Source: Catajapyx aquilonaris (taxonomy: Eukaryota). From it: a DNA stretch of 28,935 nt. Positions 27 through 23,334 of the stretch are shown one piece after another; position 1 is the stretch's first letter; the number at the start of each line of letters is the position of its first letter. The DNA lies in assembly GCA_000934665.2 (NCBI GenBank), contig KZ538255.1:62001-90935 (forward strand), given 5' to 3'. The notes under the pieces were generated by a model. The model worked only from the letters and a program-made list of their open reading frames with translations. It made no database searches and was not told the DNA's origin. A program made the position numbers and the translations under genes.

Positions 27-889
27 TTATTGATCTCGTACGGTGTAATTGAATTCTGGTTCGGTTTTGGGTAGTACATCCGGTTCGGTTGTTAGTTGGA
101 CAGGGTGTTCATCCGCATTTGGCTGTTCGCTGTACAGTTCGCCATTGGAGCTGTCCGAGGAGTTCCTTCCTTTGAAAACGGGATCAAAGTGGCTTTTGAC
201 GTGACGCACAAAGTTGGAGATGATCCACCGCTTTCCATCCCGTTTGGTACTCGTCTGTAATGGACAGGAATGAGCATTTTGTACGGTACGTCCAACTGTG
301 CCGCACTTACTTGCGAAACCTGAGTACGTCCGTGACATATAGGACAGTTGACGTGCGCTGAAAGTTTAAGTTTCTGCCCGTCTGTTGTATCGGATGCTAT
401 GATTTCCACAGCCAGTTCCTCGCCCACACAGTCGGGCACGTACTTCATGAGCCATGCCGTAATTAGCTGCTGCACTTTACATCTCTCCTCATCCGGTCCG
501 ACAGACGCTGCTGCTGTATCCTCTGTGGTCTCCGCATGACTCCGCTTCTTCCGAGGCGGCTCAGCCCTCGTCTCCTTGAAGTACTCCAGCGGCTTCTGTG
601 TGCAGTGATCCTTGATGGCCTCCAGCAGATGCATGTGTCCGGGAAGGATCTGGAACTTGTGCGGCCTCTCGTGGAATATCCCAAATGCAATCTTCATGTC
701 CCCCTGCGGCACCAGGTCCTTCATCTCTGTCCGGGCGAACATGAGCATCTTCTGGACGTCCTGCGCGTCCATCAGCCTCACAGACACTGGGTTGTCGAAC
801 CCTGTGATGGACATCAGGTGCTTCAAGTACGGAGGCATCGTGATGTCCAGATCACGGCTTATTATGTCCCAAAAGGGGCTGTCCTCCAT
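27..889 (-). CDS. Uncharacterised ~268 aa protein with a C-terminal BED-like zinc finger (2 exons: 889-311, 254-27)
   Basis: A 56-nt GTAAGT...TACAG intron (310-255, phase 0) joins ORF 92..931 to ORF 27..338, giving CPICHGRTQVSQ|TSTKRDGKRWIISNFVRHVKSH (CxxC...W...NF.RH...H). A splice acceptor lies just upstream of the MEDSPFW ATG. Confidence 0.6.
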
Positions 890-899
890 TGCCTGGAAA

Positions 900-2370
900 T
901 GATTACAAAATTGACTACACTGTGAAATCATGGAGTAATCAAGGCATGTAAATCTTGCTAATTACGGAGTGTAATCTGGGGGGCATACGGCAAGGCCTGG
1001 AAGAGCGAAGGAGACTACTGGTGGGAGCCATCTCGAGTAAGCGATGAGTGTAATCATGATGATTACAGTTTAGATCAGTCAGATTACTCGTACCTGTTAC
1101 GTATGTGCCATCATCATTATGATTACACAGATTATTACTTGTCAACTAATGTATTCATCACGAAACTGTAATATCATCATGATTAGACTCAGACCACCGT
1201 GTCCTCACAGTCTCCATTGCCCTTCCAGGAGTTGTAATCATCCTCATGATTACACTGATTACTCTGTAACGATTGTAATCATCACGAAAAACTGTCATGA
1301 TTACCCTGATTTATGCTAGTTACGGCAAGGTTACGGTATGTGTCCTTCCAGGCTTTGTGACCATCTTGATGATGAAGGACATGATTATCGTAATCATCTT
1401 GATAACGTGCTAGTTATTGTAATCATCATGACTATTGAATTACTCGGCAATTATTGTAATCATCACCAAACTTCAATCATCATTAGGCTAATTACTCGGC
1501 ATTGCCAGTTACATGTACAAGTGCCCTCGTAGTGTCCTTCCAGCATCTTGATGATGATGGTCATGATTATTGAAATCATCATGATTACACAGATTACTCT
1601 GTAAGTAATCATGAAATTGTAATCATGATTTCAATGATTACTGGGTATTGCCAGTTAGTGTCCTCGTAGTGTCCTACTTCCAGGCTTTGTAATCATCATC
1701 ATGATTACACTGATTTTACTGGGTAATTAGTGTAATCACCACCAATATGTAATCCGTTAACGCTGGTTATGTGCAGCCTACAGCGTAACAGAGACTGTGA
1801 GGCCACTGCAGCGTCCTCGCAGTCTCCGTTGCCCTTCCAGGCTTTGCAATCATGATTACACTGATTACCACACATATGGTAATCACCACGAAACTGTAAT
1901 ATAATCATATGATTACACTGATTACTCGAAAATTATTGTAATCATTACAAATCGGTAATCATGATTACTCAGTTGTGCGTAGTAGTGTATTCACAGTCTG
2001 CGTTGTCCTCTCTCCTGTAAGCATCGTCATCATCATGGAAATCATGAAATAGTCATTACTCTGCAGTTGTAATCATCACCAGCAAACATGATGAAGCTGT
2101 AATCGTCATGAACTCATGATGATTGGGGGACTCACTCTTCCGATGGGCTTCCTCTCCTCTCCAGTTGTGGTCTCCTCCTCCTCCTCTTGCTTGCGGTGGT
2201 CTCCTCCTGTGCTCCAGGCCTAGCCGGACTCCCCCCTGGATTACACCCTGATTACCCCTCCTGATTACCCTCGTAATTAGCGCCATTTTGTGTCCCGCCC
2301 TCCCCCACCCACAGCAGATGGCAGCACCGCTGGGACCCAACATGGCAGCCACATGAGTAATCACTTGAAA
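900..2370. repeat. Degenerate tract of TGATTAC/GTAATCA motifs in both orientations
   Basis: Dozens of gattac and gtaatc words, often as gtaatcatgattac-type palindromes, plus recurring ccttccaggctttg segments; no credible ORF. Confidence 0.8.
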
Positions 2371-2453
2371 TCATCATCATCAGAGAGAGACAGGAAAGGG
2401 TGTGGACACTTCTCCTTATCCGGTTGAGAGGACACTTTGAGGACACTCCAACA

Positions 2454-3170
2454 ATGCCGGTGAGTGCAACGTTTTCATGGAGGGTACAGTATGAGTGTGT
2501 ACATTTGCACTGTGCTTGTTGCAGGCGTACCACTCCCAGTACCTGCACCCCCCTGCGCTGGTGGGGAACATCGCAATGCTGCCCCTCCGCACGCAGTTCA
2601 GGGGGCCAGCGCCAAAGGACAACGGGGACATGGACGTCATAGACGAGGCCATGAACTACTTCAAGGCTAACGTCTTCTTCCGCACTTACGAGATCAAGGT
2701 TGGTACGGCTCACCTTTGCGCCCTGCGCTGCTCTCACATGCGCACGTTATACGCAGAACGAAGCGGACCGTCTCCTGATCTACATCACGCTGTACATAAC
2801 GGAGTGCCTGAAGCGCCTGGTGAAGACGTCCAACCGCAACCAGGGAGGGCAGGAGATGTACAGCCTGGCCATATCCAAGTTCGACATCCCAGGGGAACAA
2901 GGGTTTCCGCTCAACTCCGTCTACGCCAAGCCTGCCACCACGCAAGAAGCAGGTACTTGATCGCTCCTCGCTTCCAATTCCAGAGGCGTAACGCTTCGGC
3001 TTCTATTTCCAGACCTGATGCGCCAGTACTTGCTCCAAGTGCGGCAGGAGACGGGGAACCGCGTGTGCGACAAGGTCTACCACACGGAGGACGGGAAGCC
3101 CTCCAAGTGGTGGCTCTGCTTTGCCAAGAAGCGCTTCATGGACAAGTCCCTCTCAGGACCTGGACAGTGA
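2454..3170 (+). CDS. ARPC3: Actin-related protein 2/3 complex subunit 3 (p21-Arc), 177 aa; exons 2454-2459, 2525-2698, 2757-2952, 3013-3170
   Basis: Spliced product MPAYHSQ...[17 protein letters not shown]...[33 protein letters not shown]...[18 protein letters not shown]...[23 protein letters not shown] matches ARPC3; all introns GT-AG with consistent phases. Confidence 0.97.
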
Positions 3171-3273
3171 TACCAGCCATTTGATAATAATTGTTATGTG
3201 CGTCTTGCTTAAATCGATTCAAGAGCGGAAACTGCCATTGTTACAAGTACGCCCCCCCAGTAAACAAGTTTAA

Positions 3274-3410
3274 GGCTGTTGCTTACATGTGAGCGACATA
3301 ATCAGCGATGAGCGATGAAGCCAATTGTTTGCTTCCAAAACGCGATTGTTACTTTCGCGCCAAACAATTGGTTTCATTGCTGATCATATCGTTCACATGT
3401 AAACACAGCC
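3274..3410. mobile_element. Hairpin MITE, PIF/Harbinger (Tourist)-like
   Basis: Ends ggctgttgcttacatgtgagcga / tcgttcacatgtaaacacagcc are imperfect inverted repeats; internal ccaattgtttg/caaacaattgg arms; flanked by TAA at 3271-3273 and 3411-3413. Confidence 0.7.
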
Positions 3411-3809
3411 TAAAAATCGCATATATCCGAGATACAAGAATGAAAGTTGTTGTCTGCATGCTTGTGGTAATTAAGAATAATAAATAATTACAGTTTTATT
3501 GTGGCTCGGTGTCGTCACTGAAATCGGTGACATTCAGGCAATTTTCCATAACAGTTTCTTTATTCTTTAATTGACAGGTATACAAAACGGAATTGAGACA
3601 TATTTACTTGTTACACATGCTTCAACGAATAGTTTAATTCACAAGTAGTGAGTTTGGTAAGCAGATGTAATTAATTATATCTGAATTCTCTAACAATACG
3701 TTACATAACCTTCCGTACATTGGCCGCAGCTTGATTATTCACAGTTGCGCTTTAAGTTCTCATGACCGTTCTCAACATGAACTTATCAAGCATGCGAGCC
3801 GCTTGACCC

Positions 3810-4622
3810 TTAGTGCATCTGCACCTTTGCCCTGATGGCAGCCCTTTTCCCCGTGACGGCCTTGAACCCTGGCTTGACCTGGGTCACCGTGTATTTGGAG
3901 AGGCAGTCCTCGCACTGTAAGAAGAGCAGACGTGCCTCCTTCTGCAGGACAGTGTTTGCCGAATGGCATGTGTGGCAGGTGACGTACTCCCGGATGTACC
4001 TCCGCAGCACCGTCTCCATCTGCATCTGCTGGAACCTCCCTCGCACCACCAGGCTGTTGTTGGAGTCCACCGATCCCGTGGTGCCCAGCTCGGACAGAAA
4101 GTAGTCCAGCAAATGCTTGGGCTTCCGATGAAGAGCCTTGCAAGCCTCCCAGAAGTTGACCATCGCCGTCTTCTTGCTGCCAATTCGGATGACCTATTGA
4201 GAAGGATGTGATTAGAGCGTACATTGGGGGGGGGGCAAGACAGGGAAACAAACCTGTGGCGGACGCATGACAAACTTCTGGTTGACTCCGGACTTGATAT
4301 TTGGGTTCTTCTCGCGCATTGTGTCGACTGCGCGCTTCAGTAGCTCATCGTATGTGTAGTCCTCGTTACCATCCCGGCACCAGCCTTCCGCCTCGTCTCC
4401 CTCCGTCTTGTAACCGGAATCCAAGAACAACTCGTCTGCACAGTTCCTCTTCCTCCGCTTCTTCTTGGATCCTAAAAAGTCCAAGTCCAAACTGGACAGC
4501 ACTGAAGCCACCTTGTCCACATCCGGCTCCACGTTCTCCTTTCCGCATGTCTCCACAGCCTTCCCCATGACACTCTTCTTCTTCTTCTTCTTAACCGACA
4601 TATCAAACGTAACTTCCTCCAT
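3810..4622 (-). CDS. EIF2S2: Translation initiation factor eIF2 beta subunit-like, ~250 aa, divergent; exons 4622-4254, 4193-3810
   Basis: Lysine boxes KKKKKK and [46 protein letters not shown]...LQCEDC C4 zinc finger, [10 protein letters not shown]; 60-nt GT-AG intron in phase 0. Confidence 0.92.
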
Positions 4623-5039
4623 ATCTGCAAGTACCTAAAAAGTACATGCAATTATTGACAGTTGTGATGCAACTTGTGAAACACACTGTTGGTGTTACAT
4701 CATTTTTGAATTATCCTTACTAATTGTTTTAATTTTTTTTTGGCTAGCATTCAAGTGTACACGGTACAACAGTATGTTCTGCACTCACCTGAAGTCTTGC
4801 TCTTGGGACACCCCCAAAAATTGCTTCAGAAGAATCTTCAGATCGCTTCAGACCTGTTTGAAAGTGTTCGATTTGCGCGCCTTTATAACTAACATTTTTA
4901 AAAATAAAGCATAAAAAGGTTAATAACCTCAATATATGTATGAATATAAGTAATGTAATTAACAAATTATACACACGTTATAATTAGCTAATTAGTTTGA
5001 GCAGGTTTTTTTTGCGGTTGGCACCATTGGCATGTAATC

Positions 5040-5052
5040 CAAGATGGCGCCG
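5040..5052 (+). promoter_or_regulatory. YY1/Pho-like motif in the divergent promoter region between eIF2-beta and the zinc-finger gene
   Basis: CAAGATGGCGCCG resembles the YY1 consensus AAGATGGCG; it lies between two head-to-head genes. A similar CGCCATTTTG lies at 2281-2290 upstream of ARPC3. Confidence 0.35.
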
Positions 5053-5297
5053 ATTCGTTCCAAATTTTTGTTCTGAAGCTGAAATTTCCAAGTTTCTGAC
5101 GGGTAATTAGACGTGTAATTAGACACCAGGATTACTAGAGTCGGATACAGGACATGCCAGCCATGCTCTGTACTGTCAGCGAGAGTAAGTGAGGCTCAGG
5201 TGGTTCGAAACATTTGTTGTTAACTCTATGGTTTTTCTCACACAGAAATGTTCTTCCAATGCAGCAGCTGGGGTTGACATACGTGGCCTGTAGGACC

Positions 5298-6408
5298 ATG
5301 GCATCGTTTGGTGTGAGGGTGAAGAAGGAGGAAGAACTGGAGGAAGATGGGAGCGTAACGGTGGAGGAGACATGGCAGTTGACCCTGAAGGAGGAGGCTC
5401 CGTCACGCTTCGTAGAAGACACGCTGCGGGAGATCAAGCAGGAGGGAGCGGAAGAGGAGGAGGAACAGATGGTGGTGGACACGTGTGGCGCGGTTGACGA
5501 CCAAGATGACCCATTGGGAGTCTTTTCCGGAATAATCAGTGGGGTACGTCCAGCTGAAGTATTGCAATGGTGATTAAAACAAGCTCAGTTTTTCTGATTC
5601 ACTATTTCAGATCGGGTCGGAGACCACTGAAGATGGAGTAGGAAAGAAGGGGAGCTGCCGTTATTGCCAGCAGAAATTCCGCAGTTCAAGTGACTTGAAA
5701 ACTCACATGCGAAGTCATGCTGGGAAAACAACATTTCAGTGTGATATGTGCCAGAAATACGTTCCTTGTCTAAGCAAGTTGAAACAGCACATGCGGATTC
5801 ATACGGGAGACAAGCCATTTAGTTGTGAGGTGTGCCTGAAAAAATTTCGCAGTTCAAGTAATTTGAATGTTCACATGCAAATTCATGCGGGAGTGAAACC
5901 AATTCAATGTGATGTGTGCCAGAAAAAATTGTATCACACGAGGAATTTGAAACGGCACATGCAAAGTCATGTGCGAGAAAAACCGTTTAATTGTGGTGTG
6001 TGCCTGAAAATATTTCGCAGTTCATGTACTTTGAAAGTTCACATGCAAATTCATACGGGAGACAGGCCGTTTAATTGTGACATGTGCCAGAAAAAATTTG
6101 GTGATTCGACAAACTTGAAATATCACATGCAAAGTCATACTGGAGAGAGACCGTTTCAATGTGAGGTGTGTAAGAAAACTTTTCCTCTTGCAAGGAATTT
6201 GAAATGACACATGCAAAGTCATAACGGAGACAGGCCATTTAAATGTGAGGTGTGCCAGAAAAAATTCGGTGAGTCAAGTAGTTTGAAATATCACATGCTA
6301 TGTCATACGGGAGAGAAACCGTTTCATTGTAACATGTGCCAGAAAAAATTTCGCTGTTCCAGTCATTTGACATTTCACATGCGAGTTCATGCAACGGAGC
6401 ATGTATAA
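5298..6408 (+). pseudogene. C2H2 zinc-finger gene (acidic N-terminus, 9 fingers) with an in-frame TGA at 6205-6207; truncated allele or pseudogene; exons 5298-5543, 5611-6408
   Basis: Phase-0 intron joins MASFGVRVKKEEEL... to IGSETTED...CRYCQQKF; nine CxxC-x12-HxxxH units with TGEKP-like linkers; finger 7 reads ARNLK*HMQSH and the same frame continues through two more fingers. Confidence 0.8.
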
Positions 6409-6551
6409 TTACTGTTGAGTCGTGCAATAAGAAATTAAGTAATTCACCATCATGAAATGTGTGAGATTGTGTGGAAAGGTTTGCTTTCATTTCACCAGTA
6501 CCATAATTATGTGAATGAACCATTTTTGAATGTTTCCGCGCCAGTGAGGAC

Positions 6552-7110
6552 ATGTATGGGTTGCACTATAAGGAGTTTGTGGGAGACGGCGACTCCAGTG
6601 TCCATAAAAACCTCCTGGAGCGTGTGCATTACGGCCATTTAATTACAAAAATTGAGTGTGCCAATCACTGCGTTCGGAATTACACCGGCATCTTCACAAA
6701 TTGGCTGCCAATACAAAGTTGGACTGCAAAGGCAGGAAGAGACTCCAAGGCCTCATACCACGCCTTACAGCTGCAGCACGTGGAGCCATCGCTAACTGTG
6801 CTGCGGCGGGGGAGAGCATTCAACAATTGCAGGAAGACTTGCTGTTGAATGGGCCCAGCCACGTTTTTGGCAACCACGCCAAATGCTGAGAGTTGTACTG
6901 CAAGAGGAAAGACTTGCTAGAGGAGAATCATGTACCGGAAGTGAAGACGGCCCGGAAGATCTGGCAGACATTGAGAAATCAACACGGCAACAAAGTCAGT
7001 TATGGGACACTCACCATCGTCCTTGCTTAACGGCGTCAAACTTCGGCGAGGTATGCAAAAGGAAGAAAGACAGACCTGGCGGACCACTCGCCAAGAGACT
7101 GCTGAGTTCG
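6552..7110 (+). mobile_element. Decayed DNA-transposon fragment: Kolobok/Mutator-like DDE transposase core followed by a YqaJ-like nuclease N-terminal motif
   Basis: YKEFVGDGDSSV and KIECANHCVRNY, a frameshift near 6685, then LLNGPSHVFGNHAKC*ELYC, then in another frame STRQQSQLW...LTASNFGEVCKRK. No TIRs identified. Confidence 0.7.
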
Positions 7111-7988
7111 TCCAAAGTTTTCATCCAAAGTAGAAAAATGTGAGCTTAGCGAGGGTTTTTCTAGTCAATATTTAATGACACATGCTTCGTATTCATGTAT
7201 TTTATTCATGCATCAAGACAGACTAATTTAAAAAAAGGTGAACATATGGACATGGACATGACGACAAAATAAATATTAATTAAATGCTTACGTCGGGCTT
7301 GACTACAACTCGTCACTGTCTAGGCAATTGCGGCTTGCACAGAGTTGGCCACACCAATTATTACGTGCAATCCCCAGATGTTGCGTACATTTCGACCAAA
7401 GTTGGAGCGTATTGCGTAAGAGTAGTTGCGTATAATATTTGCAGAAATTCATTCTTCAAGCAGTAGAGTGGTTAGCGACGTGTGTGTAAAAACTTTTTGG
7501 CAACTATTCCTGTATTATTAGGAACATTTTACATATATCGTAAAGTCATGGAACAAGTCATGAAGCATTGCTGACGTACTGGAAAAATATTAGTGGCAAC
7601 AATGATAGTTGCGTAAAAGTATGTGATTCTCTGCTGGTCATTTCCCGACAATACTACAATTATTCTAACCTCGAAAATGCACAGGAATATTCTGCGGAGA
7701 CAAAGCTCTTTGTGTACGCACTCCCATGAGCTAGTTCGTACCACCTAGCAGTACATCTCTCACAAGCCTACGTTGTATAGCACCTGCTGATGTATATCAC
7801 AGAGGAATTTTTTTAACAATTAATGAACAATAGCTCTCTCACACATATCTCTCGATGGATGCCTGCAAGCATCCTACGTGAAGGACAACTCTGTGCGAGC
7901 CAGCAACAAACAAGTTAAAACGATCCTTAGTCAGATCCCAAAATCACATGTTGTCATCAGCTGATCAGTCGGCTCAATCGGCCGATAG

Positions 7989-10900
7989 TCAGGTAGTGTC
8001 GCTGTGTATGCTGATGCTGGTCATGTCGTGGCAGAGACGAGACTCGCTCATGTCCTCGGCCAGGACCTCGATTATATCCAGGAGGAGGTCCCTGCTCAGC
8101 GTCTTTATCCTGGAGAGTCTGGCAACCTGGAACGGGACACGGTGGACGTTGAAAATGAGGTACGGATCAAATTGTGCCCCGATATTTACCTTTGGAAAGT
8201 GATGCACAATCAGGTTGAGGGCATACTTCTTCATGTCCTGCGCCTGGATTCGATCTGCAGCTTCCAATATTTGGATCACGTTCTCGGAGGTGACGTTCAT
8301 CTCGAGGTTTTGCTTGCAGAATGCCTGGAAGTATTCGATACGATATGCTCAATTCGTCAAAACACAAGTGCGGTACATCTGTTTAGGGTTCCTCGTAAAT
8401 GCAAAGCGCTCTCGGAAAGTTCCAAAAGCAACGTGAAATGGTTCTGTTCTGTTTTCTGGAGCGTGATGCTTTCATAATGAATGAGCCACAAACCTGCAGC
8501 CGATTGTTGGTGAAGCCATAAAAGAACGGGGCGCTGAACAAATAAAGGGAATCTTCTGGAGGCATGTTGACTTCTCCGTAGTAGATGTACCGCATCAACG
8601 AGTCGAAGCTCTGCCTTGAAGGGATCATCTCGCCAATCTGAATCTGAAACAATCGTGACGTTAATCATACAAAATTTAAGAGATAATCATCTCAAGTATT
8701 GTGCTACGACAACAGCTGACTGATGACGACGCGAGAAATTAAAGTGTCTAAATTACATGAACAATGTTGTCTTCCGGCATGAAGGAACGAAACATGGCTT
8801 CGAAGTAGGAGCACCTCGCAGCCAGTATCGCCTTATGGGCAGGAATCGGAACACCGTCCAACATTAGCGTGATGTCGCAGAAGTCACGTCCAGTCGACTT
8901 CAGAAACAGCTCCATGTCCTGTTCCAGCGACGTGCCTGCACCAAACATGATTATTCACCTGGAAGTACACATTCCGCCAAGTACTTACCGCATGAGTCGA
9001 ACTGCGGCTCAGTGATGACCCTGGAGTGTGGCATCTGCCTCCTCCGAATGATCTCCACCATCAAGGGCTGGTCTAACGTCTCAAACTCCTTGCTCATCAC
9101 AATCTGGGTGTAGTTGGTGTCTTTCACCACAAACTTCAGGCAGAATTCCTTCAGAAAGTAGAGCTTCAGGTGGGACGCATTGCAGAGGGCCTCCAGAACA
9201 TTGTGGTGGTTGATGGTGGCTTCGAGGTACTGGATGCACAGCTGCTCCAGGCGTCGCATGTGGAACTGGAAAATGGGCAACGTTCGTAGTTAAAAATTTC
9301 GTATGTTTCAATGGTCGATCTATTGTAGACCTTGCACATGTTGGAAAGCAAGAGTACCTGCACGGCCAATCTGTATACGTCCATCATTAGAAGCACGATC
9401 TTATTGCACGCAGGTTCCTTGCCTGAAAGTTCACGCTTGTTAATATTCATGCTCATGGCCTAATCGAGTCGGAACTGACTTTTTCCAGTGGGGTCAATCC
9501 TATCCGTGTAGATGTAGTTCAGCACCATCTGGAATGCTTCGGGTACAGCGTCCTTCAGATGCACCTGAAGCGCAGGAAGGTCCTTGCTGTTCAGACTGCT
9601 GTTGCTGCTGTTGCTGCTCTTCTCGGACGCTCTGTCTCTGGTCTCTTTGGCTTGTCGCACTTTGTTCCGCAGCCACTGCGATCTGGCCGAGACCAGTGCG
9701 ATGTGCGCACCCACTTGTACTTCCTCCGACCCAACAGTGAACTCCACGTCCTGCAACTGCTTGCTCTCCAGCAGCTTCCCGAAGTCCTCTTGCAGCGTGC
9801 ATTTCGGATAGCACGAAAACTGCGGGTTGAAATGGGTCAGTGAAGGGCCAAGTATGACAAAATAATGTGAACGCACCTGAAATCTGTACATGTCTCCGCT
9901 CCTGACGTTGTTGTCGACAGTTCCGCCAAAGACATACATTGCATCCCCAACAACGGCAGCTGCATGAAAGAGCCGCCCTGACGGCACCTGCGAGTCGGCA
10001 GCTGGCTGGACAATATACCACGTCTGGCTGTCCAGGTCGTAACAGTGAAGATCATTCGGAAGGGTGCTGTCTGCAGCTCCTCCAAACACGTACAGATGAC
10101 GGTCAAACGCCACCATGGTGTGGCCATAGCGGCGGGTCGGAGGTGGCGGTGCGCCACGGAGTATATGCTCAGTGGAAATACGTGTCCAGCTATGGCGTCG
10201 CATTATTAGTACAAGTTCAACGGTCCCGTAAAGTAAATGTCTTACAATTTCTCTCGGAAGTGGAACTGGAAGAGGCTGTTGGTGATCTTAGCCCCACTCT
10301 GCCCGCTGAACACGAACATAGAGTCACGAGCAACGGCCACTGGGAAGTTGCAACATGTGGGCGGACACTCGCCCCCTTGCGCCACCTCCTCCCAGCACTT
10401 ACTATCGCCCTGGAAAAAAACTCATAAGCACACCGGACAGATGGCCATAAACTGACGGCATACCTGAAGCGATATGGTCCACATGTCGTTCAATCGAGCA
10501 TTCCCATCGTATCCAGCAAAGATCCAGAGCTTCCCGTCGTACACAGCGCTGCCGTGAGCCGACCGTGGGACGGGCGTCCTACAAACATGATTATAGCAAC
10601 GGCAGTACCGCGAAACCGTAAAGTGCACTTACTTTCCAGCAAATTTCCACTCGGTCCATTGCCCCGTGTGAAACTTGTATTCGAAAAGGTCATTCTTGTT
10701 GGTCAGATTGGAGTTGGAATGGATGTCGCCCGTGTAGCCTCCAAACACAAACATGGAATTGTTGTGAACCTGCCGGGAAAATATCATCAGGCACCTGCTC
10801 TTTGGTTTACGTACTATAAAAATGTCTCACCACTGCGGAGTGGTGATATCGTGGCGCGGGAGGCGACCCGGTGGAGAACGCTCGCCCCCACGACTTCTCC

Positions 10901-11201
10901 TTGACGTCGAACCTCAGCAGGTCATTCAGCATGCTCTTCCCGTTGTCCCCTCCAAACACGTAAATGGCCTCCTTGTACGCAACCACCGTGTGCTTGCTCC
11001 GCCTGCAATTAATCCACACCTTACAACCTCCCCTAGTTACGACAACACGTGTCCTCACCTGGCCCCGACAAACTCGTCGCACTCCGGCATCATCCTCCAG
11101 CGATGCACAGTCTCGAACGGACCGAAATCTAAAGTGAGACACTCTGCAGACTCTGGCCACCCATGCTCAAAGTCCATCTGCAACGGCTGGGCCATGGCCA
11201 T
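7989..11201 (-). CDS. LZTR1: Leucine-zipper-like transcription regulator 1 (Kelch repeats plus two BTB-BACK), about 13 exons
   Basis: [16 protein letters not shown]...[126 protein letters not shown]; short GT-AG introns. Confidence 0.96.
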
Positions 11202-11843
11202 GGCTCATCCTGAAAAAGGATGCTCTTTAAGACGTGCCTGACAGGTGCTGTTTTCACCACTGATTAATTAATTAGTGAGCGGTGGCAGCTCGTTAAGTCT
11301 CCCATGGAGCATTCATAATGCGACATATTGGACACCCTCAGCGATGCTTTTGCAGTTGGTGCAGTTGTTCCTTTGTGATTAGTACACACTAATTAATTAA
11401 CTGTCATTTAATTAATTTAATTAATGAGTAATGTGACAGCACCATGCGGAACACTCTTGTGCGGAAGGTGCTGCGGCTTAATATTTCCTAATAAGCAGCA
11501 GTCACTACTGATCTAATTAGACGCACTGCATGCTCCTTACTCTATTAATTGGTTGATTAATTAACAAGAAATTAAGAGCAGAAGAGAGAGACATTCTCAC
11601 CCACACACTAATCAAGTAAAACAAACGATCGATCGAACACTGATGATGCTATCGAGCAACTATCGAGTATGGACTCAGCTGCTACGCGACATCGCCCCCC
11701 TTGTTTTTAAATCGGCTATAACAGCTACATGAATAAAGCAGCGATTTGTAGCAGTTCAAAGTTCAAAAATATGAATGTTGGGAAAGTTTATTGAAATTGT
11801 TTATTGTAATGGTCATATTGGGGGACCGCATGAAGTACAATTC

Positions 11844-12731
11844 CTAACATTGGGAGCGGTATTCGCAGATGACGCTGAAGAGTAAGTTGCAATTCCGGTT
11901 GTTCCAACGGTACTGGAGGCCTCGAGCCAAGGTGGCCACGCAGTGCTGGATCCCTCCAGGGGCGTTGGGCTCCCCATTGTTCCAGTAGAAGACTTTCATT
12001 GGGGAGAAGGAGGAGAGCCAGTACCAGTTGAACTCGTGGGTCGTGTCGTAACCTCCGATCCAACTCTGCCCTTGATGGTTGGCTGTCAATAAACGAAACA
12101 TGTTTACAGTGTCAGGATATGTAGTACAGAGCAGAAGACGTGAAGCCCAAAATGATGCACCCTGTACTTTTCCGAACATTATCGTGCACTTTCTGTGACA
12201 TCCTGTACTTTTCCCAGCATTATAGTGCAATTTTATTTGGGACACCCAGTCCAACTACAGGGTGACCCAAATGTCTGGACACATAATAAGGTGGCCAGTT
12301 GTGTACTCGTACAAAAATATTGGCGCAGCTAGCTGTGTGTATCACATGACATAAAGATGAAATTATCACTGCGACGTACCGTGCCTGGCAGGGCCACAAG
12401 ACAGTCATTGTGCATTGCTATACGTACTTGTCAGAAGGTACGAGTTGACTGCGGACAGTTCTTGGGTAGTCTCGAAGGCGACTAGGTCACCTCCGAGTGC
12501 CCTGCAGTACTCCGAACCCCGGTACCAGTTCATTCTCTTAACTCCGCTGAAATGGTAGCATCCCGTTGACAGTCCGATGTACTGGCTCTGGCACTGCGGG
12601 GCACCTTCTGTACTGTTGTCTGCTGACGGTACAGTTCAATTCAGTCGTACAGTATGCAACGCGCAGTATTCGAAATAATACGTACCTTCGCTACCTGCAA
12701 CTGCTGTGACCAGAAGCAGAAGTAGAAACAT
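11844..12731 (-). CDS. Secreted single-domain C-type lectin, EPN motif, 159 aa; exons 12731-12686, 12622-12428, 12082-11844
   Basis: Signal peptide MFLLLLLVTAVAG, GCYHFSG...NWYRGSEYC, SWIGG, WNNGEPN...HC...WNNRNC...VICE; phase-1 introns; TATAAAA on the minus strand near 12771-12777. Confidence 0.9.
12158..12352. repeat. Dispersed repeat in lectin intron 2, homologous to 22224-22425
   Basis: Shared caccctgtact...acattatcgtgcactttctgtgaca, gtccaactacagggtg and aaggtggccagttgtgtact segments in the same order. Confidence 0.8.
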
Positions 12732-13033
12732 TTTGTTGTACACACCAGACTACCGACAACTTATCATACCTTTTATACCAAGTTTAATACTGACTTGTAC
12801 TTATCAGTCTGTACACATGACCCAGAATAGCTCAAGTACCTGTCCACATATGCTACACCAACTGTTGGCAGTTGACTGATAAGATTTGTGTGTACAAGAT
12901 GGTCAGTTTTGACAATGAATCCGGTCCAGTCTGCCCGCGACAGGTATTGCGGTACTGTTGAACCTGTCCACTTGAGATGATAGTGAGCCGTGCTATAAAA
13001 GCAACGCCTTGGGCCGGATTTATGGTCAGCAAG

Positions 13034-13560
13034 ATGAAGGCACTAACCACTCTTCTGGTGGCTTCCATCGTCGCAGTGTCTGCTGTAGGATCATACACGT
13101 ACTGCCAGCGCCCATTCATCAACATCGGTTCAGGATGCTACCTGTTCAGCGGAGCAGCCAAGAAGTTCAGCTGGTTCGGTGGTGCAGAGTACTGTGCTGC
13201 ATACCAAGCAAACCTGTTGACCATCGACGACGCAGCTGAAAATGACAACATAAAGCAGTACCTCCGTGCATGTAAGTACACTTTTAAATTGAGGACGTAC
13301 CGGTGTGTTTCATACCCTATTTTACAGCTGGTTGGCAGACCACTAGCTTCATCGGTGGGTATGACCTAGGCCACGAGAGAGAGTGGCGTTGGTTGTCCTC
13401 CTTCGCTCAAATGGCCTTCACCGACTGGGCACCCAAACAGCCGGACAACCAGGGAGGTAACCAGCACTGTCTCTCCCTCAGTGGACAGTACGACTTCAAG
13501 TGGGAAGACTCCAGGTGCTTCGACACAAAGAGCGTCATCTGCAAGGCTATCCAATGTTAG
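13034..13560 (+). CDS. Secreted single-domain C-type lectin, QPD motif, 156 aa; exons 13034-13271, 13328-13560
   Basis: Signal peptide MKALTTLLVASIVAVSA, GCYLFSG...SWFGGAEYC, SFIGG, WAPKQPDN...HC...WEDSRC...VICK; TATAAAA near 12994; AATAAA at 13563. Confidence 0.92.
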
Positions 13561-17221: not shown

Positions 17222-17558
17222 CACTGGACTCTTACCGACAGGCCGAGGAAAGTGCGAAGGATCCCAAGAGAAGTGGGACGCCTTCTATTCTGTAGAACAT
17301 AAAATTGAAAAACACAACATATCCACGGTAACGTTTCATAACAGTCAATGCCAATTGTTGTAACAACTAGTTACTCAGCAATCAGGATCAGTTGTCTAAC
17401 GCAGTACTTGCAATATTAGTGATGAGAATACCAACAAATTTTATTCAGAAGAATACTCTGTACAAAAGTTTTTGGTCTCATGTTCAGGACGCAAGAAGAA
17501 AGAGGAGCCCATTTGTTTTTTTTTGTTTTTAAAAAAAGGTGATGGCCTCCAATAAAAA

Positions 17559-20500
17559 TCACACGCATTTTCTGTCGAAGAAGTGGTCAAATCCTTTCAG
17601 GATCTTCTGCAGTGCTTTTCCGGGACAGCAGGTGTCGGACAGTTGTCTGTGTCCGGCCAACTTGTACTTGGGATGCAGGTAGCCCTTGTCGAGACCGCAA
17701 GCCAAGAGCGACTTCAGAGAATCCAGCTGCTCCTCGGGAGGCGGCTCACCTACGGGAAGGGTCATTTGTTAGCATCAAATAATAATAATAATCATTGTGA
17801 ACGTTCAGAACACTACGACAGACAATTATGTACACATATAGTGCAAGGAGATTTCCGTCCGATTGAAATCTGAAATGAATTTGCACTCCCTGCACCTTCT
17901 GGTTATCGGCCGCAATTTTGCAGAATTCCGTACGGTAGCTAGTCTGCAGATATTAAGCCATATTACGCACAATATGTACACTTTACAAACATTACCTACA
18001 GTAACGGCACATTTAAAAAAATGCATGTGATGCTGTGAATGTGAGTGACATGTAGAAGACACACCGAACAGAGTGACGCCAACTAGACAAACACTAGGCA
18101 CACCAATACAGTAGTGTAATAGGAGAAGAGCAAGGTGACAAGTACTGTGTTTGTGATGTGTGTAAGCTGCGGAGATGACTTTCACATTTATAAGAGAAAA
18201 TACATTGAGGAAACTGAGAGAACGATCTGACGTCATCAAGGTTTCCATTGAAAATAACCTCACAGAACAACAGTGTCAACAAAAAGCAACAATGGAACAA
18301 ACGATGACGTCAGATCGTTCTCTCGTTTTCCGAACATGATGTCAATTTATTTCTAGAGTAATGAGAGAAAGCCGTTTGCATTAACGGCAGATATTCTGAA
18401 ATTCCAATGAACTCAGCTCTTTTGCGATGTTACCAACACAGCATTTCAGTTGAGACGTTAACAAATTTTGTACACAGTGCTAAAGAGTGCTGTAAAAGTG
18501 TGCTTGTGAAAAGTGTCAGTTGTGAAGCATACACAGGTATACACAGACGCAGTTAGAGAGAGGAAAAAAAGCCTGTGAGACAGCAATGATTAGGAGTCAC
18601 ACCGAAAACAAACAACCACAACCAACGAGCAACACTTCTCCTCAGTACGGCAACAATGCGGTTAACACCACACCACAAAGCCTTTTTTTTTTCCTTCCAG
18701 AAGTTATACAGAGCACGACTACGTGACGAAGTATGCTCCCAATTGCTTCTGCTGCAGGGACGGCCAGCCTTTGGATCAAATCGTCCAGCTTATTTCACGT
18801 TGGCCGTCCCTGCACAGATGCGATTCAATTGAAAGCGTACAGTACAAGGGTGAACACACAGTTGCTGTATTTTTCCACTCATGTTACATACTCTTGAAGT
18901 TGCCTGTGAGCGCCACACCAAGAGATTTGACGTTGTAATTGCTGACATGCGATCCTCTGGTATCCCATCCCCTGCCTTCAAAGATGGTTCCATTTCCACC
19001 GATCACAAAGCTGCAAAGTCCCACGCTTTGCAGTATGCAATACTACACAGGTTCCAACCATTACGTGTTGTTTGGTATTGTGAATATGTTATGCACTTAT
19101 CAACAGAGGTTTTTTTTTTAAAAAAAGATGATATATGAAATTGACTTTCAGTGCATTATTACAAGATGGTTGAATATGACTACACAAAGTTATTAAGTCC
19201 CCATGAATAAGATGGCAGAATAGAACCATACTTGTATCCGATGTCGCACCATCTCTTGGTCCTCATGTGGTACCGCTGAATATCCTGTATCTTTTGATGG
19301 CAGGTGTCATTGGAGTAGCAGTTCTTTCCATTCGTGTGATGGATCACCACGAACTCCCACGGCAGCAGTCTGGCAGGCTTGCCGACAGGGTTGGATGCAT
19401 TCCAGTCATCACGAGGAACAACTGGTGGACACTCTGAAGGCGAACAAGAAGTTTAATTGGAGGTAAATGTTGAAATCCGACATCAACGAGGATTTTTTTT
19501 TCTGACTTAAGCCGCGTTTACATACGAGCAATTTATCAGCGATGTTGCTAAAGTAACAATAGTGATAACTACATTTTTGCCCTAAATAATATTGGTCTCA
19601 TTGCCCAGCGATGTGCAACGTCGCTGATAAATCGCCGGAATATAAACGCAGCTTATGTTTGAGACAGACACAATTTTTTACTTTAAAAGTCCGCATTTGG
19701 CAACTTTATAGTTCTCAAGCAGCTGTTAAACGAGGTTAGGAAATAAGAGAGTAATTATCATTCACATGTACACATTTATTTTCAGATAAATATTACAAGA
19801 CTAGAAATGCACCCTGATCATGATTACTCAGAGAGTTGTCTCGGCATAGTTTCGTCGACTGGTTGGATCACCCAAGGTAAGGACTACTCTTGACCTGATA
19901 CGACATTTTAAAAGTCTGTGCTCTGGCAACGGCTGACCAATAGCATCTCGAGGTGATCTGGCGCCACGCTTTGACCTTCAGACTGCAGCACATTTTGGTA
20001 AGCCGGAAAGGAATGTTCTACGTCGCAAGCGACCACTGGTGCAAACACATATCTCGACAGAGCATCTGGCTTCACTTCTTGCAGTGCTTCCGATGCATAG
20101 TCACTCTGACCGTTCAGAACCCGACTGATCCCCTGCAGCGTTTCTAACCCTGGGTTGCTGCTCACTAAACTGGAGAACATTTCCATGACTTTACCACCAG
20201 TTGATTCGGGTGCATTGCTGATGGCCGTTTTGATAGATTCAAGAGTCACCATTGCTTCACTGAGGGTGAGTCCTGCGCCTTTCATTTTAGACTTTGCGGT
20301 TGACAAAACGGAAAAGTGATCCTTGATGTACGCTAAGTTTTCTAGTATGGAGCTGCTTACAAAGGCTTCTTTCACTTTGGTCACACACGCCGTATCACTT
20401 GTTAATGAGTCGACAACCTTCAAAAGAAACAATTCAGAGGTATTAATTATTTCTGCAAAGTTACCGCATTTACATGATATCTACCGCTCTGATTGCCGTA

Positions 20501-22124
20501 AAATTCTTCTCCATGAAAAGTGCAGCATCAATCCATGATTTATCCGGCGCTGGTGGCAGCGGCAAGTCCTCATTGGCCTCCCTATATTTCTGTATCCGAA
20601 CAGGTGACCCTGCAAACGCAAGGTGGGCCGCCTCCAACAGTTGGTCAACTTGTGTGAACTCTTCCTTCACGCACTCAATCAGTCCCTCCAGCATCGTAAA
20701 CAAACATGTGCAGTGGGTGACATTTGGGTAGAAGATCTGAAGGGAAGTCGCAGCTTCAAGCATGTAACTCGCTGAGTCGGTCAGGAGCAGCAGCAGACGA
20801 GATTCGTGCCCACCGTACGGCCAGAGAAGTTCTGTTGGAAGACATGCGTTAGGATAAAGTACGACACTGTTTACGGTATGGAACGTACTCAGCGAGTCGT
20901 TAATGAAGCGAGCGATTGTAATGTGCGTGGTTTTTCTCATCACTCTGACACCGATCAGATGCGGCGTTGATGGTCCGTCAGCTTCCATCTTTCCGACCAC
21001 CATGTTGGCTATACATCTGCATCCAACCTGGTCGACGGTCACGCCAACGGAAGCCCAAATGTACGAATCACCCAGGCTGTCCCGTACCAACTCGATCGCC
21101 TTCGGATGAAAGAAATCATGTGAATGTCCGTATTTCAATGTGAACGTTAGGACCGTACCATTTCGTAGCATCTGGGTACGTAATTTTGCACCAGTGTGAC
21201 CTGATCCGGTATGGTTCTCTGCATGTATTTCTCCAGGAAGCTTCTAAACGTCTGGTTGTCCAGTACGCTCCATGGCGTACCTGAGGCGGACAGAACGTAG
21301 GCCAGCTCCCCTTCAAAGCTGTCTTCCGGATCGCTCTGGCTGCACGTCGGCTTGGTCTCAACCATACACATTTGGTTGCTAAACGTGTTCTGCAAGTTCC
21401 TCTGGTGCATACCGGTCATATTGTGCTGGACCAGCTGGAATTTCCGTTCGCATGGAATCTGCCGGATGAAACCATGTTAATGAACATGTGAAACGACAGC
21501 GTACAGTTGAGGGCGTACCAGTTTGCAGCAAGGGCTGCAGTAGACGGTGACTCCGTCCGTGGTGTAGCTCGGATACTGCGAGACCCACTGGTGCAACAGT
21601 TGGCGAAGGGGTGTCCGCACCTTGGGCATTATCCCGGCAAACCCAAACTCTCTCTCTCTCTACTCCTCTTTATATTCCTATGCCCCTGAAGAGCAATTTT
21701 CTCTTTAAAAAAGATTTCTTCATCCGCAGTCCGCACTGCACATGACAGCGCTCCAGTACTGAGTGCTGCATTACGCTTAATTATTTTTATACCAAAATGT
21801 ACTACATGCTGTACTGAACCTTCTGCCCTACATACCTTGCCTACAACCTACACGTAATTGCACAGTAAATAATTATTGAGGAAAAAAAATATATTCATGC
21901 AGCAAAAGGCGTCCATGTTGCTCCTGAGGGGGTGCCAACAGCACGGTTGGCAATCCTGATTACAAGCGCGAAGTTTCAAAATAATTTAATTGCAAATTCA
22001 CGAATATTTTGCTACGGGCTATAGACCTTCCTATTAAGCAGTCGATAGACTTACCGACAGCAGCCATGATCGGCGCAGGTGCCAGGATCGCCAACAAAAG
22101 GCAGCTCATCCAATAATAAGCCAT
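17559..22124 (-). CDS. Short secreted peptidoglycan recognition protein, amidase type (PGRP-A), 193 aa; exons 22124-22055, 19433-19232, 19010-18892, 17749-17559
   Basis: Signal exon [68 protein letters not shown], TCCPG; intron phases 1,2,1 give one open frame. Mostly missed by the ORF track. Confidence 0.9.
18209..18331. repeat. Inverted repeat containing TGACGTCA in PGRP-A intron 3
   Basis: gagagaacgatctgacgtcatc pairs perfectly with gatgacgtcagatcgttctctc (22 bp), with weaker pairing extending on both sides. Confidence 0.75.
19510..19653. mobile_element. Hairpin MITE related to the 3274-3410 element
   Basis: agccgcgtttacat / atataaacgcagct termini; internal atttatcagcgatgttgc / gcaacgtcgctgataaat arms; TA-containing flanks. 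Confidence 0.65.
19908..21629 (-). CDS. hAT-transposase-derived (CGGBP1/DUF659-like) protein, 492 aa, nested in PGRP-A intron 1; exons 21629-21519, 21458-21159, 21099-20889, 20831-20485, 20417-19908
   Basis: MPKVR...YTTDGVTVYCSPCCKLIPCERKFQLVQHNMTGMH zinc finger, FRSFLEKY...IPD, LLWP, LLLLTDSASYM, FYPNVTHCTC, PLPP, APVVACDVEHSF; four short GT-AG introns with consistent phases and no stop. Confidence 0.85.
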
Positions 22125-22223
22125 GGCTGCAAATCAATATTATCAAGAGGGCTCATGAAACACACATAAATTCACACATGCTACACACTCTACTGTTCCA
22201 ACATTTTTGGTGGCAAAATTGTA

Positions 22224-22457
22224 TGTGACACCCTGTACTCTTCTGACATTATCGTGCACTTTCTGTGACACCCTGTACTTTTTTCCAACATTTCTGTGAC
22301 ACCCTGTACTTTATACCAACATTTTTGTGACACCCTGTCCAACTACAGGGTGTGTGACATAAGGTGGCCAGTTGTGTACTATAACGCACAAAAAGATTGT
22401 CGCACTGTGCGTATCACATATAACTATACATGGATATAGTGTGCGACAATCTTTTTG
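22224..22457. repeat. Composite repeat: tandem gtgacaccctgtac units, back-to-back CACCCTG/TACAGGGTG ends and a 17-bp hairpin
   Basis: Four gtgacaccctgt units; caaaaagattgtcgcac (22389-22405) is the exact reverse complement of 22441-22457; homologous to 12158-12352 and 24522-24585. Confidence 0.8.
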
Positions 22458-22961
22458 CTTGTCATTGCACTTATATGGGCTCAGCTTGTAGTGCCAACAC
22501 CTGTTTTTGTTTACACACGTGACTACGTGTATAACAATGAACTTGCCTGGCTGTGTTGCCAAGTGTCCACCACACTCTAAATTGGACGGTCAGGCCACAG
22601 AGGACCTGCTGGGTTGGATGGACAACTATCACCTGGGACTAGTACAGGTCTATAAGGTAGGGGGTATGGAGGAGGTTGGGGGGGGGGTAAAAGAGGGTTT
22701 TGTGGATCGATAAATACCCCCGACGTGCAATCCCAGTATCCCCACGCCCTTTTCCTGGGACTATAACAGCGACGATTCTAGTCCATAGCTCTAGGAGGGC
22801 ATGTAATAATAGACTTGTGGATGAGTCAGAGAGCCAACAACTTGGCAGTTTATGTATATTTTGTTTGGCAACATTGCAAGAAAGGGTTATATTTATGATA
22901 TACGCCAACCCTGGGGGTTAACCACTCCACTTTTATAGCAAGTAATCGCAGTAATATTATA

Positions 22962-23226
22962 CAGGGTGTAAATCCTAAGCGTGTCACCAGAAAAGGTGGT
23001 GGTAGAGGGCGCAGGTGTGAGCATTTTTGCATAAGGAACTAGGGGTCGGAAACGCACCCTCACCGAGTTACGCCCCTTTCAAGTTTGCGGCAGGCAGTGT
23101 GCACGCGGCGGAGTGACTCGGTGAGGGTGCGTTTCCGACCCCTAGTTCCTTATGCAAAAATGCTCACACCTGCGCCCTCTACCACCATCTTTTCTGGTGA
23201 CACGCACGCTTAGGATTTACATCCTG
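22962..23226. mobile_element. Foldback MITE, Tc1/mariner-type ends, ~110 bp TIRs
   Basis: TA|cagggtgtaaatcctaagcgtg...caccctcaccgagt is mirrored by actcggtgagggtg...cgcttaggatttacatcctg|TA with few mismatches and one 4-nt indel; TA on both sides. Confidence 0.9.
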
Positions 23227-23334
23227 TATTGCTCTTACGGTACTTACACGTTGTGCCCATTGCCGAAGGCTGGGCACGTCTCGTTTCCATGCCGGGACAA
23301 GCGAAGTTACGTTTCCAAGTCGGGAATATAATTG

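Follow-up and report, generated by a model that had tools for sequence, protein, structure and literature searches.

Introduction

The N-terminal zinc finger and DNA-binding region of hAT transposases has been domesticated independently dozens of times, mainly from the hAT-19 subclass and in fish, insects and fungi, as Yellan et al. described in 2021; most of the resulting genes have introns and/or are truncated, and most are DNA-binding modules of <200 aa (PMC8097297). Many of the non-amniote CGGBPs have introns, and these genes show a patchy distribution and no synteny (PMC8097297). The ZBED family and the plant SLEEPER/DAYSLEEPER proteins are hAT transposases kept as host DNA-binding or regulatory proteins, as stated in an extract of PMC11351766 and, for ZBED, in a mention in PMC8097297. 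In the present study we describe a transposase-derived gene of Catajapyx aquilonaris, the coding part of which lies at 21629–19908 on the minus strand of a 28,935 nt stretch of contig KZ538255.1 (GenBank assembly GCA_000934665.2, positions 62,001–90,935; hereafter the window), close to a PGRP gene (PGRP-A) on the same strand. We put at about 0.7 the probability that the gene encodes a catalytically dead, domesticated hAT transposase acting as a DNA-binding or regulatory protein, and most likely it adds a further example to a type of transposon domestication already known.

For the enzymes themselves, an extract of PMC6027215 names D180, D248, R318, W319 and E572 as the essential residues of the Hermes transposase, and changes at D180, D248 and E572 affect its activity according to an extract of PMC2533014. 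DUF659 is given as an RNase H-like domain of hAT transposases in part of PMC3985635.

Gene structure, transcript and splicing

Joining of five coding exons gave a frame of 492 aa plus stop (1479 nt) with no internal stop codon. The four introns between these exons are 60, 59, 57 and 67 nt long, and all four have GT..AG ends. Contigs assembled from public sequencing runs of the organism were compared with the window over 17400–22400: runs X1–X4 are DNA-like and come from one sample, X5 comes from another sample and study and contained 0.43 of the sampled words, and the contigs of X1, X4 and X5 were used. The X5 contigs splice out precisely the four coding introns together with a fifth intron of 150 nt (21835–21686) in the 5′ untranslated region (5′UTR), while the X1 and X4 DNA contigs run continuously through all five introns without a joint. 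We treated X5 as cDNA-derived because of these intron-less contigs, which the DNA runs lack. The transcript has six exons, one non-coding and five coding, and zero letters differ between the X5 records and the window over the gene. The exon junctions of the spliced protein coincide with no gap in the family alignment (see below), which gives independent support for the splice model. The introns are host-sized, as those of the host LZTR1 gene in the same window measure ~50–170 nt and include an in-frame one of 57 nt. A preliminary description of the window, made from the letters alone, had proposed an intact 492 aa frame with four host-sized introns; the joined frame, the X5 splicing and the LZTR1 intron sizes uphold this proposal, and its four coding introns stand, but it had overlooked the 5′UTR intron and the non-coding exon 1.

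All parts of the transcript lie on the minus strand. Non-coding exon 1 (21836–21934, with the true 5′ end maybe further upstream) is defined by an X5 contig that covers 21835–21934 and joins at 21684/5, and an upstream open reading frame (ORF) of 22 codons can be read in it from the ATG at 21916 to the stop at 21848. The 5′UTR intron (21686–21835, GTATGT..CAG) corresponds to a joint 21684→21835 (cut +1) found in X5 only. Exon 2 (21519–21685), placed by the sequence and X5, carries the remaining 5′UTR and coding exon 1 (ATG at 21629–21627; 37 codons, with both zinc-finger cysteine residues), and is followed by coding intron 1 (21459–21518, phase 0, GTACGC..CAG; X5 joint 21458→21519), which interrupts the zinc finger. 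Both zinc-finger histidine residues and an N-terminal helical, DNA-binding-like region are encoded by the 100 codons of coding exon 2 (21159–21458; sequence and X5), after which comes coding intron 2 (21100–21158, phase 0, GTACGG..AAG; X5 joint 21098→21158, cut +1). Coding exon 3 (20889–21099) holds, according to the family alignment and the fold, the first strands of the RNase H-like fold and the motif SVGVTVD with Gly156. Coding intron 3 (20832–20888, phase 1, GTACGT..CAG; X5 joint 20831→20889) is itself open in frame, and exons 3 and 4 therefore appear as one 257 aa ORF. The family alignment places TDSASYM (D226), CLFT (T253) and PD----KSW in coding exon 4 (20485–20831), which is separated by coding intron 4 (20418–20484, phase 0, GTAGAT..AAG; X5 joint 20415→20483, cut +2) from coding exon 5 (19812–20417). 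This last exon, supported by two X5 records, contains 169 codons, the stop at 19910–19908 and at least 96 nt of 3′UTR, and the alignment assigns to it the all-alpha insertion domain and the C-terminal hAT-like motif CDVEHSFP, with Glu457 kept. The 3′UTR reaches at least to 19812, 32 nt short of an AATAAA at 19780–19775 that is probably the polyadenylation signal of the gene. As a side observation, coding introns 1–3 start with GTACG, and the PGRP introns and the 5′UTR intron start with GTAAGT or GTATG. The pairwise similarity of introns 1–3 is marginal (z 2.2–2.5, with 4–8 of 300 shuffles equally high), and a shared origin of the three is not claimed here.

Descent from a DUF659-type hAT transposase

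A phmmer search with the exon 3–4 translation matched 944 cluster representatives at E≤1e-3, 295 at E≤1e-10 and three at E≤1e-30, and many of these relatives are 480–505 aa long and aligned at the same relative position. The closest relative among the 1.84 billion representatives searched is 47% identical, over a fragment, and the best full-length relative is 34.6% identical by BLASTP and 36% in the tree alignment. DUF659 was matched at E≤0.01 in all 22 relatives scanned (19 exceed the Pfam cut-off), and Dimer_Tnp_hAT was matched weakly in four of the 22. A profile made from 40 relatives matched the spliced window protein over positions 1–488 of 490 with a score of 442 bits, and CDVEHSFP of the window protein aligned with CDVERSFS of the family. 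These results support the derivation of the gene from a DUF659/CGGBP-type hAT transposase, as had been suggested from the letters.

Among the separately scanned exon translations there was no match to DUF659 (PF04937; gathering cut-off 34.7 bits) at E≤1, the exon 5 translation alone did not match Dimer_Tnp_hAT (PF05699), and an RSF match among the exon pieces was rejected as sub-threshold. A word-indexed search with exons 3–4 against longer proteins returned a single match, a cockroach REV1 fusion (P0001): this 1094 aa protein of Periplaneta americana is annotated as REV1 and has a stretch 44% identical to the window protein, and is probably a gene model that engulfed a transposon copy. The language-model search Atlas pointed to DUF659/ZBED1 RNase-like clusters (score 0.92; 148–160 shared features), which we take as a lead only.

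The relationship was then considered at the level of the fold. The AlphaFold model of the relative P0003 has a predicted local distance difference test score (pLDDT) of 91.1 and a predicted template-modelling score of 0.78, and Foldseek with this model placed Hermes transposase chains at the top (E 2.9e-11 to 2.9e-8), with the P element transposase next. VIA-align superposed residues 106–481 of the model on Hermes 135–605 with Z 24.6 and a root-mean-square deviation of 3.7 Å over 347 residues; the next family after Hermes had Z 12.8. The exon 3–4 piece of the window protein, folded with its relatives as an alignment, gave an RNase H-like core with a pLDDT of 87.1, and the sole low-confidence stretch, residues 72–90, is the translated intron 3. 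This piece aligned over its entire length with Hermes 158–346 (Z 8.5–9.3, 167–172 residues) and with retroviral integrase cores over 83–86 residues (Z ~10). By the P0003 model, the window piece and the colinearity of the spliced protein with the family profile, the protein has a Hermes-like RNase H core interrupted by an all-alpha insertion domain. When the family profile was searched against PDB sequences, Hermes was not reached and only weak U1C-type zinc fingers were obtained (E 0.023), so the link between the family and Hermes is structural only.

Loss of catalytic residues and retention of the zinc finger

To the five Hermes residues correspond five near-invariant positions of the family, D148, D216, R296, W297 and E448 (P0003 numbering), an equivalence that we infer from spacing and alignment ranges rather than from a residue-level superposition. 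The CxxH motif that follows the second aspartate also matters in hAT enzymes. Conservation was scored in 80 full-length relatives (440–560 aa), comprising 50 database proteins and 30 ORFs from metagenome loci. The key positions D-D-C-H-R-W-E are all kept in 68 of the 80; five have a gap at the first or last key position and are otherwise intact, and the remaining seven carry substitutions. In the window protein the same positions read G156, D226, C250, T253, a deletion in place of T-R-W, and E457 (G-D-C-T-gap-gap-E).

An alignment with 50 full-length relatives shows these changes in context. The family consensus S.DETTD, TDAAPYM, H.TCLAHGLHR, PV.TRWGTW and DVERSFS is represented in the window protein, in the same order, by SVGVTVD, TDSASYM, HCTCLFTMLEG, PD----KSW and DVEHSFP. 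Gly156 stands at the first aspartate of the Asp-Asp-Glu (DDE) triad, of which D226 and E457 are kept; the histidine of the CxxH motif is replaced by Thr253, with C250 kept; and an in-frame deletion of four residues removes T-R-W from the RW motif. The zinc ligands C31, C34, H49 and H55, on the other hand, are all present with the family spacing C-x2-C-x14-H-x5-H. Over the 79 columns that are ≥80% conserved, the window protein retains 61%, compared with a median of 92% (range 59–99%) for the relatives. Many of the residues lost in the 31 changed columns are conserved lysine or arginine residues, and hydrophobic core positions are kept.

The preliminary description had read SVGVTVD, CLFT, a reduced TRWGTW and VEHSF beside an intact zinc finger, and the alignment confirms each of these readings. 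It had also proposed a structural alignment with Hermes, and an intact DDE triad on a proper alignment as the finding that would speak against a dead enzyme; the structural comparison confirmed the RNase H-like core, and the triad of the window protein is not intact, with glycine in place of the first aspartate and T-R-W deleted.

Copy number and transposon ends

One DNA contig (18303–22400) holds the gene, with a word depth of 33.9 in X1 and 20 in X4, the same as that of the neighbouring unique contig (33.8 and 21.3 respectively). No other contig of X1 or X4 reached ≥90% identity over the gene body, and no second copy is present in the window. The gene is a single copy in the DNA contigs, a copy number judged from k-mer contigs and not from a finished genome. 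A scan for terminal inverted repeats (TIRs) with target-site duplications (TSDs) around the gene (11 nt with ≤2 mismatches, an 8 bp duplication matching at ≥6/8, within 1–1.3 kb) found two weak pairs, compared with 0.87 in 30 shuffles, and neither pair has a hAT-like YARNG start. A repeat search found nothing flanking the gene. Two inverted pairs, I2 and I3, were rejected as chance, one arm of each lying in coding sequence.

What such elements look like elsewhere in the family was seen in 80 related metagenome loci, the 80 best of 156 loci that were confirmed out of 194 matches to a pattern. An uninterrupted ORF of ≥440 aa was present in 30 of the 80, which indicates that the family is normally intronless. 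A stricter scan (12 nt, duplication ≥7/8) of those related loci that had a full ORF and sufficient flanking sequence produced hits in ten, of which two are convincing: L022, a 2200 bp element with a perfect 12 bp TIR pair (TAGGG...) and a 7/8 TSD, and L032, a 1938 bp element with a CAGAG... TIR pair matching at 11/12 and a 7/8 TSD. AT-rich hits are probably due to chance.

These data bear on whether the gene could belong to a still-mobile, intron-bearing hAT element, autonomous or mobilized in trans, whose ends went unrecognized. Such an element might be suspected from the persistence of D226 and E457, from the shortness of hAT TIRs, which can be hard to see, and from a copy number that comes from k-mer contigs only. 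Against it stand the absence of the D180, R318 and W319 equivalents, the single copy at flank depth with no other ≥90% contig over the gene body, and TIR/TSD pairs not above chance, and we regard it as extremely improbable. The earlier statement that the gene has no TIRs is thereby borne out, and the many near-identical copies with TIRs that a mobile family would show were not found in the k-mer contigs.

Probable domestication of the transposase

The gene has an intact frame, is transcribed and spliced, and occupies a single locus at which it is immobile, as is found for domesticated host genes. The proposal of a catalytically dead, retained protein made in the preliminary description is supported by the lost Asp, His and Arg-Trp residues, the single copy, the missing TIRs, and the expression and splicing.

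We propose the following sequence of events. A hAT DNA transposon of the DUF659/CGGBP-like (hAT-19-like) kind would have been captured as a host gene, and the whole transposase length of ~490 aa would have been kept with its cutting chemistry disabled: the first catalytic aspartate would have changed to glycine and the CxxH histidine to threonine, the Arg-Trp pair for hairpin formation would have been deleted, and many conserved basic residues of the catalytic domain would have been replaced. The transposon ends would have disappeared, and the gene would have come to possess five spliceosomal introns as well as a 5′ exon and a polyadenylation signal of its own. Most likely, the protein would bind DNA sequence-specifically or associate with chromatin, using its intact N-terminal zinc finger of the C2H2 (U1/BED-like) type together with the neighbouring helical domain, and the hAT C-terminal region that it retains might allow it to form an oligomer.

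Whether the frame is under selection can be gauged indirectly, from how quickly an unconstrained frame would close. In simulations of random substitution in the coding sequence, which ignore indels and splice sites, the frame remained open in 29% of cases at 2% divergence, 5% at 5%, 0.3% at 10% and in none of 3000 at 20%. In a quick tree, the end branch of the window protein is 1.21 substitutions per column long compared with a median of 0.67, and the tree tool flags its composition as unlike that of the alignment. If much of this change post-dates the loss of transposase function, it is very unlikely that the open frame, five splice-site pairs and an in-frame deletion of four codons would have resulted without purifying selection.

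The same data have to be set against another possibility, that of an immobilized hAT copy that is dying: having inserted in the PGRP region and shed both its ends and its activity, it would be transcribed only incidentally and would keep its frame open for lack of time. In its favour, no orthologue was found; ~9% (7/80) of full-length family members carry key-residue changes, so degenerate open copies exist; and the two samples are identical over the gene, so that polymorphism is uninformative on constraint. Nevertheless, 31 of the 79 conserved columns have changed, yet the 492-codon frame, the five splice-site pairs and a four-codon in-frame deletion compatible with full length persist, whereas under simulated neutral change the frame is soon lost. 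A long residence as a gene is further indicated by five introns in a family that is normally without them and by the full loss of TIRs. A dying copy is therefore distinctly unlikely in our view.

Several points nevertheless weigh against domestication as we propose it. D226 and E457 remain, and residual metal binding through them may persist. Part of the length of the end branch could come from transposon lineages missing from the sample, and not from the period as a host gene. No orthologue was found (no relative exceeds 47% identity in the 1.84 billion representatives). The introns could already have existed in an unsampled parent element. The exon translations reached no Pfam family when scanned separately, and the structure models lean on the alignment of relatives. 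Finally, X5 carries no RNA record, its RNA nature being deduced from its intron-less contigs, and expression alone is no proof of function.

Position of the gene relative to PGRP-A

X5 joins PGRP-A exons at 19433–19232, 19010–18892 and 17749–17488 on the minus strand. Exon 2 (19232–19433) contains the start of the mature PGRP/amidase_2 domain, exon 3 (18892–19010) overlaps an ORF matching Pfam Amidase_2 at E 1.4e-5, and the coding part of exon 4, including the stop, occupies 17562–17749, with the X5 record reaching 17488. As exon 2 has a phase-1 acceptor and no in-frame start upstream, a further upstream exon is needed. The candidate exon 1 at 22055–22124 (minus strand), chosen on phase, donor and hydrophobicity only, encodes 23 protein letters plus 1 nt and ends in phase 1 with the donor GTAAGT; it is the sole hydrophobic ATG-started segment with phase 1 and a consensus donor within 19434–24100. 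Below 19908, where the preliminary description had considered that a first exon would leave the transposase-derived gene outside the intron, no suitable leader candidate is present. The presumed PGRP-A intron 1 (22054–19434, 2621 nt) would contain the transposase-derived gene on the same strand, and on these sequence features we consider the nesting probable. Of the nesting described earlier, the splicing of PGRP-A exons 2–4 was seen in X5, and exon 1 and the 22055/19433 junction were not. Same-strand nesting is the less common arrangement, and a literature search on sense-nested domesticated transposases returned nothing specific.

It is also conceivable that the gene is not nested, that the first exon of PGRP-A lies elsewhere or that 22124–22055 is part of another transcript, and that the gene just happens to lie between two PGRP genes. 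The nesting does depend on sequence features of the candidate exon only, and the PGRP-A contig of X5 goes no further than the boundary of exon 2; no X5 contig covers 22055–22124 or contains the 22055/19433 joint, a result that is neutral on nesting, and a word-indexed protein search with PGRP-A exon 2 gave no candidate. Yet exon 2 requires an upstream exon, for which 22124–22055 is the only signal-peptide-like, phase-1 GTAAGT candidate in 19434–24100, with none below 19908. The second PGRP gene, PGRP-B, has the same phase-1 G|AG acceptor, which points to a separate leader exon as a family trait, and the X5 contig departs from the genome one base past a G with which both the intron and the candidate exon end, as a splice would allow. 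An un-nested arrangement is therefore unlikely.

If the gene does lie within intron 1 of PGRP-A, the two could be functionally coupled through transcriptional interference, competition between the polyadenylation site of the inner gene and the splicing of PGRP-A, or promoter elements shared within ~200 bp. The first exon of the transposase-derived gene (reaching at least 21934) begins ~120 nt below the candidate PGRP-A donor (22055) on the same strand, the presumed PGRP intron contains an AATAAA in the sense orientation, and both transcripts are represented in X5. Among the listed X5 joints, however, none is chimeric between these genes, and the nesting itself comes from sequence features; we consider coupling improbable, and a link between the transposase-derived gene and PGRP-A is a hypothesis only. 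A bolder version, to which we give a similarly low weight, is that all five introns were gained de novo after capture, in a genome that is compact and arthropod-like, that the promoter lies ~120–200 bp below the PGRP leader, and that PGRP-A output depends on read-through of the nested exons and polyadenylation site. If this were true, the locus would hold a transposon-derived switch on an immune receptor gene. The GTACG start and weak mutual similarity of three introns would, under de novo gain, hint at a common source.

Several side observations concern the PGRP genes and their introns. A high-copy repeat occupies 18068–18401 (core ~18209–18337) in PGRP-A intron 3; its depth is 1,830–12,959 compared with ~34 for unique sequence, and many contigs end there. 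An inverted repeat resembling a miniature inverted-repeat transposable element, with 44 nt arms that are 82% complementary and a 66 nt loop, lies at 19505–19658, between the polyadenylation signal of the transposase-derived gene and PGRP-A exon 2; in this region the depth over 19404–19570 is 283 compared with 34, and one of the X5 contigs ends loosely at 19548. PGRP-B (24137–24852, minus strand) is 35–54% identical to PGRP-A per exon and has short introns; its mature domain begins at the phase-1 G|AG acceptor, and the best candidate for the leader exon, 25883–25829, is tentative.

Surrounding genes

The window is gene-dense and contains ARPC3, eIF2-beta, a C2H2 zinc-finger gene, Mutator-like transposase fragments, LZTR1, coiled-coil genes, the two PGRP genes, a C-type lectin pair and a papain-family (C1) cysteine protease. 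The best identities of the LZTR1 piece are 71% with insect proteins, 69% with those of horseshoe crabs and 66% with those of decapods, from which an arthropod-like host without a close relative in the protein collection is deduced. The Mutator-like match (PF20700, E 3e-12) is in ORF fragments at 6519–7143 (plus strand), a remnant or a gene, and the C2H2 zinc-finger gene (5578–6207) adjoins it. The two C-type lectin genes are arranged head to head at 11844–12254 (minus strand) and 12962–13560 (plus strand). A 289 aa open frame at the window edge (92–961, minus strand) has no Pfam match, and a single N is present at 28050.

Comparison with known systems

Among the seven full-length relatives with substitutions at key positions are P0019, from two Polistes species in one 90% cluster (NNCNRWT), P0148, from two Rhagoletis species (DNCLRWE), P0149, from four Paragonimus species (DDCNRWE), and P0092, from Musca autumnalis alone (DNCDKTE). 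The first three are host-gene-like because they are common to congeners, and on their sequences all four resemble additional full-length domestications, apparently not described before. The quick tree places the window protein weakly with P0019 and P0092 (Shimodaira–Hasegawa approximate likelihood-ratio test 88, not starred). Its identity to P0019 is 31% by BLASTP, not above that to intact relatives, and the grouping is likely to be a product of long-branch attraction. The sequences are most simply explained by independent events in the window gene and in these degenerate relatives. Along with the relatives from Polistes, Rhagoletis, Musca and Paragonimus, the window gene suggests that animals have repeatedly kept full-length versions of the family that are catalytically dead; if so, these form a tractable set for asking why a dead catalytic core is kept.

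The locus adds a case to the recurrent domestication of one hAT subclass that is well documented in its gene model, splicing, residue inactivation, copy number and missing ends. Its most interesting aspects are the apparent gain of five introns, the survival of the whole dead transposase, and whatever interplay there may be with an immune gene, and an intronless parent family set against a derivative with five introns is a clean system for the study of intron gain.

Compared with Hermes (PDB codes 4D1Q, 6DWZ and 2BW3), the family has the same fold (Z 24.6 over 347 residues for the P0003 model), and the family spacing between D148 and D216, 68 residues, equals that between Hermes D180 and D248 (residue numbers from PMC6027215), but identity is 12–14% and the window protein is without the equivalents of D180, R318 and W319. 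The DUF659-type hAT transposons are colinear with the window protein over its whole length and share its zinc-finger spacing, its RNase H-like core with a helical insertion, and DVE.SF. They are, however, usually intronless, keep DDCHRWE in 68 of the 80 relatives and in some cases have YARNG TIRs with 8 bp TSDs, whereas the window gene has five introns, the key-residue losses, no TIR/TSD and a single copy. P0019, P0148, P0092 and P0149 resemble the window protein in being full-length (~490 aa) with key-residue substitutions, although the residues lost in each are other than the G-D-C-T-gap-gap-E of the window protein.

The ZBED and SLEEPER/DAYSLEEPER proteins illustrate the same principle, host use after transposition was lost, in another hAT subclass and other lineages. 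CGGBP1 and the non-amniote CGGBPs come closer, being host genes from the same kind of hAT zinc finger and DNA-binding region. The hAT-19/CGGBP-like label for the family is taken from PMC8097297 as a lead, and the family-conserved P99 and P121 are present in the window protein beside C31, C34, H49 and H55, as candidates for the two conserved prolines of that paper. Unlike the mostly truncated CGGBP-type genes known so far, the window gene keeps the entire transposase body, with a degenerate catalytic core and the C-terminal region.

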